A DNA stretch of 64,000 nucleotides, taken from IMG/VR virus record IMGVR_UViG_3300027295_000004; one strand, given 5' to 3'. The notes below the pieces were generated by a model. The model saw only the letters and a program-made list of their open reading frames with translations. It had not been told where the DNA came from and ran no database searches. The translations under genes were made by a program, and so were the position numbers. Each line of letters starts with the position of its first letter. The stretch's first letter is position 1. This stretch comes from a virus. Taxonomy: Duplodnaviria; Heunggongvirae; Uroviricota; Caudoviricetes. Positions 54,381 to 57,301 of this stretch are shown piece after piece.

Positions 54381-54806
54381 ATGTGGAGAAATGTTTACTA
54401 TGACAATAGCCGCAAGAAGATTTTCTTGTGGAGTTGGGATAAAAATGGCAAACGCAAAATGTATGATTTTGAGTATGAGCCATTCTTGTATGTAGAGACA
54501 AACAGTGCTCAGTATGATGCAAAAAGTCTTTTCAATACCAACCTTAAAAAGATTGTATTCAAAAACGAATCAGCAAGAAATCAATATGTAAAGGATGCAG
54601 GCATTCGTCGTGTGTTCTATAACTTGAGAGCAGAGCAACAATTTTTACTTGATCTTTATCGCGATAAAGAATTTGATTGGTCTCATTTGCCATTCAAAAC
54701 ATTTTATTTGGATATTGAAGTTTATACTGCAAAGTATAAAAATGATAAAAAAGTCAAAATACGCAAAAAGATAGACACACAAAAAACGCGGGGAAGCAAT
54801 ATCTAA
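54381..54806 (+). CDS. gp43: Family B DNA polymerase, N-terminal fragment (N-domain to Exo I 'DIE')
   Basis: 'MWRNVYYD...LW.WD..G.R....F..EPFLYVE', 'QQFL.D.Y', ends 'YLDIEVYTAKYKNDKKVKIRKK...'. Confidence 0.85.
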   Translation: MWRNVYYDNSRKKIFLWSWDKNGKRKMYDFEYEPFLYVETNSAQYDAKSLFNTNLKKIVFKNESARNQYVKDAGIRRVFYNLRAEQQFLLDLYRDKEFDWSHLPFKTFYLDIEVYTAKYKNDKKVKIRKKIDTQKTRGSNI

Positions 54807-54951
54807 AGCAAAAAAAGGAGTCAAAACAAACCAAAAACAATTAACATCGTCAAGACTTAAAAAAATGTCAGACGAAGAATTTGAAATCTATTTATCGAAA
54901 ATTAATCCATGCACAAGAAAACGCATGATACACTACCGAAACAATGAATGA
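54775..54951 (+). pseudogene. Start-less remnant resembling the C-terminus of a homing endonuclease (NUMOD3-like)
   Basis: Third frame, opened by TAG at 54772, reads 'THKKRGEAISKAKKGVKTNQKQLTSSRLKKMSDEEFEIYLSKINPCTRKRMIHYRNNE*'; its stop overlaps the start of the PolB C-fragment. Confidence 0.45.
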
Positions 54952-57301
54952 AGTAATTGAAACAACATTGGGTGAAATCCGTGGAAATCCGCAACTACTT
55001 GAGCAATATGAAATCTGGGACGAAGAGACAAAGGAATGGACTTCATATCATAATTCATGCTATACTCATCAGTCAGAATTTCCAGAAGCAGACGAAGCAA
55101 AACATCCAATCAACGTAATCACAATTTATGATAACATATCTGAAAGCTTTTATAGTTGGGGTTTACATCCGTACGAAAAATCTGGCATCAACGCCGCGTT
55201 CGCATCGCAAGGAATTAAAGAGTTGGATGTTCAGAGAATCCATTATACCTATTGTAGAACCGAAACGGAGTTGCTCCAAAAATTTCTAGAGTTTTGGTCT
55301 AAAGATTATCCAGATGCAGTAACCGGATGGAATATTGAAGGGTTTGATATTCCATATATCATTAATCGGATTTCTTATGTTTTGGGAGAGGATGAAGCAA
55401 AGATGCTCTCTCCTGTGCGCAAGCTTTATGTTCGACAAGGAATTGCTACAAAGTTTGGCAGAGAAATTAATAAGTGGTATATTCGAGGAATGACTTGTCT
55501 TGATTATATGGACTTGTACAAGACCTTTAGTAGAGGAGAACAAGATTCATATTCTCTTAACAACATTGCAGCAGCAGAGCTTGAAATTGGTAAATTGGCC
55601 CACAATGCGTCGGATTTGGCAGCGCTTGCTGAAAGCGATTGGAATTCATTTGTTCATTACAATATTCATGACGTAAACCTTGTCAGATTGTTGGACGAAA
55701 AATTGAATTATGTTACTATTGCGAGATTCTTAGCTTATAAAGGATTTACCAAAATCGAAGACTCATTGGGTAAAATTATGATAGTGACTGGTGCGATGTG
55801 CAAGGAAGCTAATCGCATGAATAAAATCATTCCGACATTCAATGCAGTTGCAACACAAGAGGATTATGTTGGTGGATATGTCCGAGAACCGCAGCGTGGG
55901 TTGAATGAAGCAGTTGTATCATTTGACGCCAACTCCCTATATCCAAATACGATCATCACCCTGAATCTTTCACCGGAAACAAAAATCGGTAAAATCATTT
56001 ACAGGGATGACACCGAATGCAAAGTAAGATTTATCAACAAAAAAGAACAAGTATTTACCATAGACCAGCTTGAGGAATTTTGTACAAAAGGAAGGCTTGC
56101 ATTATCACAAGCAGGTGTTTTGTATCGTCAAGATGTCAAAGGCATTTGTCCGACTTTTATTGATTCACTTTATCAAGAACGGGTTGTTATCCAAAACCAA
56201 ATTGAACAGCTTGAATCACAGCAAGTAACACCAGAAATTAAACATAAGATTAAGCATTTGGATCAGATGCAGTACACAATCAAGATTTTCTTGAATTCTG
56301 CGTATGGTACTTATGCGAACAAATACAGTCCGTTCTATGATATTGATATGGCTGCAAGTATTACGGAAACAGGGCAGGCGGTTATTAAACAAGCAGCATC
56401 GATTGTTAATAAATTCTTTGTCGAGGAAAATGGTTTGCCGGATAAGGATTATATCGTATATGGAGACACAGATTCGGTTTATTTAACTATTAAAGATTAC
56501 CTCACAAAACATAATATTCCGATCTTAAAGGAAAACGGAGACGTTACAGAAGAATGCGTTGCAGCAACGGATACACTACAGTCATTCATCAATGATAAAA
56601 TTAATCATTGGGCGCGCAATACATTACATTCAGTAGATCCGCGATACTTCTTCAAGAGAGAATCAATTTGTGATGTTGGTCTTTTCTTGGAAAAGAAACG
56701 GTATATTCTTAGTGTGAGGTATGATGGCAAAAGAAACAAACACAAATACAAATATGTTGGTGTTGAAGTTCAGCGCAGTACATATTCAAATGCTGTTAAG
56801 AAGTTGATGAAGGATATCATTACGACCGCGTTTAAATCAAAAGATCGTGCGATTACTGACGCAAAGTATAGAGAGTGTTATGAGAGTTTCAAGACCTTAC
56901 CAATTGATGATATTGCATTGCGTTCCTCTATTAAAGATTATGAGAAATATGCTTCACAGTCGAACGGATTCAATATTGCATTGCATACTCCTATTCATGT
57001 CAAATCGGCGATTTATTTCAATACATTAATTAATACATTGAATTTGAAATCAAAATACATGCCAATCATTTCGGGCACAAAGATTCGGTATGTATACACA
57101 GCCCAAAACAAATACGGGCTCAAATGTATTGGATTTAATGACACAATCCCACCAGAGTTCGACATTAAAATCGACACAGAAAAAATGTTTGAGAAGCTAG
57201 TTGCACCTTGCATTGAAAGAGTGTATAGTTGTATCGGCTGGCAAATTCCAGACATGAGCAGACAATATCAATGTGATTTTTTAGATCTTTTTGCCTTATG
57301 A
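54944..57301 (+). CDS. gp43: Family B DNA polymerase, C-terminal fragment (rest of exonuclease plus polymerase)
   Basis: Exo II 'TGWNIEGFDIPYI', Exo III 'YNIHDV', 'SFDANSLYP', 'KIFLNSAYG', 'YGDTDS'. Confidence 0.95.
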   Translation: MNEVIETTLGEIRGNPQLLEQYEIWDEETKEWTSYHNSCYTHQSEFPEADEAKHPINVITIYDNISESFYSWGLHPYEKSGINAAFASQGIKELDVQRIHYTYCRTETELLQKFLEFWSKDYPDAVTGWNIEGFDIPYIINRISYVLGEDEAKMLSPVRKLYVRQGIATKFGREINKWYIRGMTCLDYMDLYKTFSRGEQDSYSLNNIAAAELEIGKLAHNASDLAALAESDWNSFVHYNIHDVNLVRLLDEKLNYVTIARFLAYKGFTKIEDSLGKIMIVTGAMCKEANRMNKIIPTFNAVATQEDYVGGYVREPQRGLNEAVVSFDANSLYPNTIITLNLSPETKIGKIIYRDDTECKVRFINKKEQVFTIDQLEEFCTKGRLALSQAGVLYRQDVKGICPTFIDSLYQERVVIQNQIEQLESQQVTPEIKHKIKHLDQMQYTIKIFLNSAYGTYANKYSPFYDIDMAASITETGQAVIKQAASIVNKFFVEENGLPDKDYIVYGDTDSVYLTIKDYLTKHNIPILKENGDVTEECVAATDTLQSFINDKINHWARNTLHSVDPRYFFKRESICDVGLFLEKKRYILSVRYDGKRNKHKYKYVGVEVQRSTYSNAVKKLMKDIITTAFKSKDRAITDAKYRECYESFKTLPIDDIALRSSIKDYEKYASQSNGFNIALHTPIHVKSAIYFNTLINTLNLKSKYMPIISGTKIRYVYTAQNKYGLKCIGFNDTIPPEFDIKIDTEKMFEKLVAPCIERVYSCIGWQIPDMSRQYQCDFLDLFAL

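Follow-up and report, generated by a model that had tools for sequence, protein, structure and literature searches.

A family B DNA polymerase gene of a distant T4-like phage, split in the Exo I loop at the probable remnant of a MobE-type homing cassette with conserved protein tails

The nrdA gene of phage Aeh1 is broken into nrdA-a and nrdA-b with mobE between them, an arrangement for which Friedrich et al. 2007 is reportedly a source alongside Crona et al. The mobE gene splits nrdA between two active-site strands; the tails of the resulting fragments, with isoelectric points (pI) of 10.4 upstream and 3.8 downstream, came with mobE and are essential for activity, and such tails were proposed as a general way to neutralise gene fragmentation (Crona et al. 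2011, PMC3045599). A comparable break is described here in the family B DNA polymerase (PolB) gene of the virus record IMGVR_UViG_3300027295_000004, of which a stretch of 64,000 nucleotides (nt), referred to as the window, was analysed. In the window PolB is encoded in two halves; each half carries a tail at the break, and between the halves lies the remnant of a homing endonuclease gene.

Three other described systems are close to this locus. T4 topoisomerase II is split by mobA; an insertion of ~70 amino acids (aa), consisting of the gp39 C-terminus and the gp60 N-terminus, forms an 'assembly bracket' in the cryo-electron microscopy structure, for which the halves were fused for expression (PMC11461880). 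Gene 43 is split as 43A and 43B in the Aeromonas phages 25, 31 and 44RR (Petrov et al. 2006, as cited in PMC2988022 and PMC2677866). Genes fractured by split inteins have been found in phage-like metagenomic DNA in the order half-gene, tail, endonuclease gene, tail, half-gene, with tails complementary in charge (Dassa et al. 2009, PMC2677866). The original prediction, made from the letters of this DNA alone, did not recognise rescue of a split gene by such tails as a described phenomenon; Aeh1 NrdA/mobE (PMC3045599) and the T4 bracket (PMC11461880) both precede it. What is new here is the host gene, the site and the series of decay stages.

The two PolB open reading frames (ORFs), 54381-54806 and 54944-57301, lie in different frames with a spacing of 137 nt (54807-54943). 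The upstream ORF encodes 141 aa followed by a stop and ends ...FYLDIEVY-TAKYKNDKKVKIRKK-IDTQKTRGSNI; the downstream ORF encodes 785 aa and begins MNEVIETTLGEIRGNPQLLEQYEIWDEETKEWTSYHNSCYTHQS-EFPEADEAKHPINVITIYD, with 44 extra residues ahead of EFPEADEAKHPINVITIYD. Both PolB frames are closed by stops across the gap; the third contains an open stretch of 58 codons (54775-54948). The break falls between DIEVY and EFPE in the Exo I loop; the D-I-E motif of Exo I itself sits in the N-half. This layout, with two ORFs 137 nt apart, stops in both frames and a break inside Exo I, agrees with the original prediction. The features are collected in Table 1.

Table 1. Features of the split PolB locus, in window coordinates
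Feature	Position	Strand	Basis or remark
PolB N-half core (N-terminal domain to Exo I strand ...FYLDIEVY)	54381..54725	+	aligns with 80 related PolB N-termini; dN/dS against L005 0.04
Basic N-tail TAKYKNDKKVKIRKK, 15 codons, cassette-borne	54726..54770	+	not in empty-site relatives; conserved in cassette-bearing PolBs
11-codon extension IDTQKTRGSNI and TAA, non-conserved	54771..54806	+	the N-half frame runs on across the deletion junction and into the endonuclease remnant, out of frame with it
3' remnant of MobE-like HNH homing endonuclease, last ~58 codons and TGA	54775..54951	+	alignment to C-termini of intact endonucleases of relatives
Start codon and acidic C-tail, 44 codons (MNEVIETTLGEIRG...WTSYHNSCYTHQS), cassette-borne	54944..55075	+	ATG overlaps remnant stop (ATGAATGA); pI 4.1-4.7
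Remainder of PolB (EFPEADEAKHPINVITIYD...; exonuclease domain continued and polymerase domain)	55076..57301	+	Pfam matches; dN/dS against L005 0.06
Entire decayed cassette, 350 nt	54726..55075	+	replaces 9 nt (three codons, SPY-type) of empty-site relatives

The C-half matches the Pfam families DNA_pol_B_exo1 (PF03104, 7.4e-18) and DNA_pol_B (PF00136, 4.3e-34), and the window polymerase is ~31% identical to cyanophage g43. The source is a distant T4-like phage with a family B polymerase of the T4/RB69 gp43 type. The parent record is a complete phage genome of 195,888 bp with terminal repeats. Two other assemblies, L012 (European Nucleotide Archive, ENA) and L013 (Joint Genome Institute, JGI), are 100% identical to the window across 7.3 kb and 6.3 kb, and the exact N-half product is present in 76 index blocks of the assembly collection; an assembly slip, which the original prediction had named as fatal to its reading, is therefore not the cause of the split.

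The split polymerase is taken as functional because it is the sole PolB of the complete 195.9-kb genome, because the ratio of non-synonymous to synonymous substitution rates (dN/dS) of its core against the near-identical relative L005 is only 0.04-0.06 (the stretch past the L005 intein site being left out of the calculation), and because the same split occurs in several lineages. Such ratios indicate strong purifying selection on both halves.

The gap between the halves is what is left of a MobE-like HNH homing endonuclease gene, its last 58 codons. The third-frame ORF aligns with the last ~60 residues of intact endonucleases of ~270 aa found at the same site in relatives (L084, L093, L050). 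When the L084 endonuclease is searched against the window's own genome, a single match is found, covering aa 197-264 at window 54742-54942 (E 3.9e-11). The window retains no usable 5' part or start codon of the gene. The intact endonucleases belong to the family phrog_655 'homing endonuclease' (1.7e-37); they are 41% identical to T4 mobE over aa 1-121 and 33% identical to Aeh1 MobE (E 1e-13). Their Pfam HNH score is under the cut-off, with the HH..N..H motif visible. With tblastn against phage records, neither the 58-aa remnant nor the fused tails scored above chance level.

The remnant also accounts for the end of the N-half. The original prediction was right about a basic tail, and wrong in ending the N-half at ...KIRKK; eleven further residues follow, which are an out-of-frame read of the endonuclease remnant and have no counterpart in other lineages, where N-halves terminate directly after ...KIRKK[ST]. 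The endonuclease 3' end overlaps the start of the C-half in L050, L084 and L093, and the window remnant keeps this overlap (ATGAATGA). In the intact genes the endonuclease ATG is enclosed by predicted RNA hairpins of -25.8 (L084), -22.6 (L093) and -14.1 kcal/mol (L050); this region is deleted from the window. The T4 late-promoter consensus TATAAATA is found in the spacer before the endonuclease (L084:2877-2945, L093:581-650, L050:4896-4975), and the combination of TATAAATA with a long hairpin around the ATG resembles the control reported for mobE. There is no enrichment of TATAAATA in the window (5 found, 9.5 expected), and a promoter role is not claimed.

Relatives were compared at 80 related PolB loci and at ten further loci obtained with a profile search of the C-terminal tail. 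All stages of cassette decay are seen among them at one site, after DIE[VT]x. The site is empty (DIETYSPxxFP) in 53 of the 60 distinct PolB rows of the tree; the motif DIE[VT]YSPxxFP runs uninterrupted in L003, L004 and L007 (76-81% identity), which have 9 nt where the window has 350 nt, and in about 65 further loci. PolB is split around an intact endonuclease of ~270 aa in L050, L084, L093, L100, L101/L102, L106 and L014/L015; the original prediction had raised just such an endonuclease between the tails as something that relatives might carry. It is split without an endonuclease in L040 (stop to ATG ~16 nt) and in L104, which belongs to a different PolB lineage. The window, with its 58-codon endonuclease stub, is a further state. 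The spacing of the halves varies accordingly, from ~16 nt in L040 through 137 nt in the window to ~830 nt in the endonuclease-bearing loci.

In a last group the tails are fused in frame as an insertion of 54-61 aa; this group consists of L005, which is 99% identical to the window, L090-L092 and L105. Continuous genes with the segment as a plain insertion had been named in the original prediction as speaking against it, and L005, L090 and L105 are such genes. L005 also carries a mini-intein of 165 aa (L005:5531-6025; C...VHN|S) in polymerase motif C, matching Pfam Intein_splicing at 3.8e-08. Its site corresponds to window ~56476, after YGDTDS. The window does not have this intein; thus the sister strains differ by two independent mobile elements in one gene.

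On the 60-row PolB tree, the distribution of the cassette takes no fewer than six gains or losses. The filled allele L093 and the empty allele L094 are only 0.016 apart on this tree, and their DNA shows clean boundaries: DIETYS-cassette-FPEP in L093 and DIETYS-PES-FPEP in L094. Because of these near-identical filled and empty alleles with clean boundaries, and the number of changes on the tree, the cassette including its tails, ~1 kb when intact, is regarded as the homing unit. Both tails are present on every cassette found. The intact order is a basic tail of 15-16 codons, a stop, a short spacer, the endonuclease gene of ~270 aa and an acidic tail of ~42 codons; the spacer hairpin covers the endonuclease start, and the acidic-tail ATG overlaps the endonuclease 3' end.

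Right behind the N-tail, a degenerate second copy of the DIEV codons can be seen at L106:440-472 (...KIRKKKDLDIEV-stop), at L014:4400-4419 (KIDIEV-stop, in another frame) and at L101:2130-2150, and the window retains ...KKID at 54768-54776. This may be the target site, duplicated at the founding insertion.

The tails align across PolBs that are merely 42-50% identical and are missing from unsplit homologues. The consensus is ..[YF][KR]DD.KIKIRKK[ST]-stop on the N-side and M.ES.I[TS]LGE[FI]RNN...[ED].YEVWDEE...W[TV].Y..SCY on the C-side; the N-tail pattern of the cassette-bearing PolBs at 42-50% identity to the window is x-x-[YF]-[KR]-D-D-x-K-I-K-I-R-K-K, and the alignment positions E3, L9, G10, R13, Y22, E23, W32, Y35, S38 and Y40 of the C-tail are invariant. 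In nine lineages each, N-tails have a pI of 9.5-10.7, computed on the whole N-half tail (window: 54726-54803), and C-tails a pI of 4.1-4.7, in agreement with the 10.4 and 3.8 of the Aeh1 NrdA tails. Conservation and opposite charge of the tails thus stand as originally predicted. Among L040, L084 and L093 the tail dN/dS is 0.08-0.19, which indicates purifying selection; the tails are therefore translated and constrained, and an intron is excluded. The ATG is retained on every split C-half.

Searches with the tails against PHROGs and Pfam gave no match, and a word-based protein search with C-half residues 1-60 found none either, not even the query itself. The acidic tail of Aeh1 NrdA-b contains YEVYEDEE (L096:42400-42460), and the PolB C-tails contain YE[VI]WDEE (window 55004-55030). 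When the Aeh1 NrdA and PolB tails were compared with hhalign, only a 7-residue YEV[WY] match was found, at a probability below 1%, which is not significant; this likeness could be convergence on a charged beta-hairpin.

Structure prediction suggests how the tails may be arranged. In an AlphaFold2 (AF2) model of the fused L005 form (residues 1-440), the mean predicted local distance difference test score (pLDDT) is 86.9, and the part outside the insertion matches RB69 gp43 with a template modelling (TM) score of 0.77 (E 4e-32). The insertion, with a pLDDT of 59-77, is modelled as four short strands (124-129, 136-140, 154-158, 163-166) and two helical turns; modelled alone, it has the same topology (pLDDT 72.6). 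The position of the endonuclease is at the tip of the modelled hairpin, in the loop 130-135 between the N-tail strand 124-129 and the strand 136-140 at the start of the C-tail. According to these models the tails make up a small beta module, broken at the tip of a hairpin, in which they pair strand against strand, in keeping with the zipper originally proposed.

A complex of the window N-half with C-half residues 1-330 is predicted with a score of 0.92, while the best of three controls reaches 0.00; 58 of 80 solved complexes score as high, as do 2 of 110 mismatched pairs, counts which are rough (own alignments were used). At least 86% of contacts agree between runs, and the partner pLDDT is at least 83. 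The predicted interface includes C-tail residues 2-47 and N-half residues 104-130; the out-of-frame extension is not part of it. Expected error is lowest for pairs in which C-half residues 59-64 and 123-127 meet N-half residues 106-112. Solved gp43 structures exist, and the complex score may reflect memory of them; it shows likeness, not binding.

The closest parallel is Aeh1. Both systems have a Mob-type HNH endonuclease gene inserted between adjacent beta-strands at an active site, with a basic tail on the upstream fragment and an acidic tail on the downstream fragment. In both, the endonuclease gene and the start of the downstream half overlap (in Aeh1 by its coordinates), the endonuclease start lies in RNA structure, and there is no splicing. 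The host gene differs, being NrdA in Aeh1 and PolB, in its Exo I loop, here. Aeh1 represents a single transposition-like event, whereas the PolB cassette is a recurrent homing element across many lineages, and in the window its endonuclease is reduced to the 58-codon remnant. The PolB tails, known here from sequence, have no detectable homology to those of Aeh1 and share with them only the motif YEV[WY].[DE]E.

T4 gp39/mobA/gp60 is similar in that a free-standing HNH endonuclease splits an essential replication enzyme whose function survives fusion of the halves, which is artificial in T4 and natural in L005, L090 and L105. It differs in the enzyme and fold context, with the structure here being predicted only. 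A 50-nt translational bypass element is present in T4, according to Bonocora et al. (2011) as cited in PMC11461880; none is seen here.

The Aeromonas 43A/43B genes likewise encode a T4-type family B polymerase in two cistrons; as far as the citing articles (PMC2988022, PMC2677866) report, the products co-purify and are active, and phage 25 has a homing endonuclease gene between the cistrons. By the same accounts this endonuclease is of the GIY-YIG seg-type, unlike that of the PolB cassette, and 44RR has an untranslated spacer. The window break is inside the Exo I loop with conserved cassette-borne tails. The split inteins of Dassa et al. 2009 (PMC2677866) are true Hint halves with splicing blocks; the PolB tails lack, or do not conserve, the nucleophile, block B and the terminal HN, and the element is too short.

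The best explanation, to which we give a probability of about 0.8, is a decayed homing-cassette remnant in the Exo I loop of a split PolB that reassembles non-covalently. A mobile cassette would home into the Exo I loop of T4-type family B DNA polymerase genes; in the window phage, ~210 codons from the 5' end of the endonuclease gene would have been lost by deletion, with the polymerase gene remaining split. The halves would presumably be co-transcribed, translated separately and then joined non-covalently into a single working polymerase. In this process the basic tail would supply one strand of a beta-hairpin and the acidic tail, with its first strand, the other, and their pairing would close this hairpin in a small module next to the Exo I strand; this would be the same solution as that of the Aeh1 NrdA-a/NrdA-b tails and the T4 gp39/gp60 TOPRIM 'bracket'. 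Of the non-splicing zipper that was originally proposed, non-covalent reassembly is thus retained as the best and a plausible reading; the need for the tails in assembly is called into question by the fused forms.

Several points weigh against this explanation. The tail insertion is modelled with only moderate confidence. That both halves are made and associate is something we infer from sequence, and no Shine-Dalgarno or promoter-like signal is found upstream of the C-half ATG; the N-half start is likewise without a Shine-Dalgarno sequence, and the stretch between the halves has no conspicuous promoter or terminator. In the fused forms L005, L090 and L105 the tails work as a plain loop insertion, and hence are tolerated as such, maybe rather than needed. 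PolB is, furthermore, a monomeric enzyme. The Aeh1 tails are dispensable for the NrdA-a/NrdA-b heterodimer and needed only for higher-order assembly (PMC3045599).

The fused forms and the Aeh1 heterodimer would suit the same decayed cassette with tails that are a tolerated passenger loop, the halves rejoining via the large native interface between the N-terminal and exonuclease domains and the tails persisting through their position next to the active site, from which there is no clean removal. Most of the predicted contacts are indeed native (the lowest-error pairs above). This is rather unlikely given the dN/dS of the tails, the opposite charges kept in every lineage, the occurrence of both tails on every cassette, the location of the tail strands inside the confident part of the predicted interface, and the fact that the Aeh1 tails are essential for activity (PMC3045599). 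On balance, tails that are needed for assembly are slightly favoured over tails that are not. A stronger form, in which the tails are halves of a self-contained portable beta module that co-evolved with MobE-type endonucleases, is required for rebuilding the Exo I site and is possibly a Hint relic, is conceivable and is put forward tentatively. If it were true, the cassette would bring its own protein 'clip' and could enter a catalytic loop without doing harm, which would add a third general strategy to introns and inteins.

An intein has also been considered, in two senses. In the first, the tails would be an atypical, very small split intein and the halves would be ligated by protein trans-splicing, as one alternative in the original prediction had it; in the second, the tails would merely descend from an intein, which was its preferred view. 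The window does have HN followed by Ser, as was originally noticed, and the Ser is conserved in alignments; the HN is not, since relatives have SS, SV, FN, KD, YI, DN, DD, LT or KK at this position. Structure searches with the isolated insertion place intein chains in weak rows (8cpo and 8cpn, E 4-5; with VIA-align, 6owu Z 2.9, 5oxx Z 2.7 and 6vgw Z 2.2), and a degenerate-intein origin was raised for the analogous Aeh1 tails (Crona et al., PMC3045599). These rows are a lead, not a match: for the isolated insertion, Foldseek has no row under E 3, and VIA-align has none over Z 3.6, the three intein chains (Z 2.2-2.9) standing in a list of 35 rows. At position 1 the tails have T, G, I or S, so no nucleophile is conserved there; in the L040 and L050 tails, the last residue is the sole candidate nucleophile. 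The TxxH block (block B) is absent, and the element has 54-61 aa where a Hint domain needs about 130. A PDB profile search with the tails finds no intein or Hint domain, returning a Kelch repeat (a beta-hairpin motif) at 1.8e-5 instead; the Pfam search of the tail element has no Hint match; and hhalign of the tails against a 29-member intein family, built from library matches to the L005 motif-C intein (the sole intein among the fetched loci), gives a probability of 0.5%. The fused forms, moreover, retain the element as a constrained part of the protein. Trans-splicing is consequently very improbable, with no intein hallmark conserved, and an intein origin of the tails, though a little easier to accept, is improbable as well.

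Two further readings, both with next to no probability, do not involve joining of two proteins. A single polypeptide might be restored by a group I intron, by ribosomal bypassing of the gene-60 type (the other alternative originally offered) or by two +1 frameshifts through the middle frame. That frame is open between the halves, and T4 mobA travels with a bypass element (Bonocora 2011, as cited in PMC11461880). The open frame is, however, accounted for by the endonuclease remnant; Rfam has no intron or other RNA family in the window gap, in the intact cassettes of L084 and L050 or in L040; and the gap RNA is no more stably folded than shuffled sequences (z = 0.04). The variable gap length, with an independent endonuclease ORF in ~830 nt or only ~16 nt, the ATG on each split C-half and the protein-level selection on the tails also speak against it. 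The cassette flanks are read in frame (dN/dS <0.2) and are fused in frame in L005 and L090, unlike a group I intron. Alternatively, the split might be an assembly or sequencing artefact, or the polymerase a dead pseudogene. There are A-runs in the gap; the identical assemblies over 6-7 kb, the 76 index blocks, the independent lineages split at the same position and the strong purifying selection on the sole PolB of a complete genome make this reading hardly tenable.

Crona et al. (PMC3045599) expected further genes broken up by mobile endonucleases to bear tail-like sequences, and the PolB case fits this prediction. A natural series at one site, comprising empty site, intact cassette, endonuclease-free split and in-frame fusion, is missing from the single Aeh1 and T4 cases. 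The series shows that tails and endonuclease are mobilised together in a single homing unit, that the tails are under selection even after the death of the endonuclease, and that the split is able to persist or to heal. An essential polymerase evidently tolerates a break directly after a metal-binding motif of its proofreading site. For annotation, such polymerases should not be labelled as pseudogenes, introns or inteins. If the role of the tails is confirmed, split-protein engineering would gain a pair of small, complementary tails of natural origin.

Further interruptions are found in and around PolB. L006 and L021 (about 956-2361) have an additional interruption of ~1.4 kb in the exonuclease-domain region; it lies downstream of an Exo I loop that is 18 nt longer (DIEVYTRKADGSRGEFP). 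In KJ019091 and KJ019144 (Synechococcus phage ACG-2014f; H37-H44), PolB matches in two pieces, with gp43 split at a different place, and 'hypothetical protein' genes are annotated between two 'DNA polymerase' coding sequences. L014, the Logan relative, contains a LAGLIDADG-type ORF on the opposite strand (L014:1991-2896, minus strand) and an extra AAA/SMC-like gene (L014:3187-3960) between a glycosyltransferase gene and PolB; from this locus, the PolB neighbourhood seems to collect mobile endonucleases.

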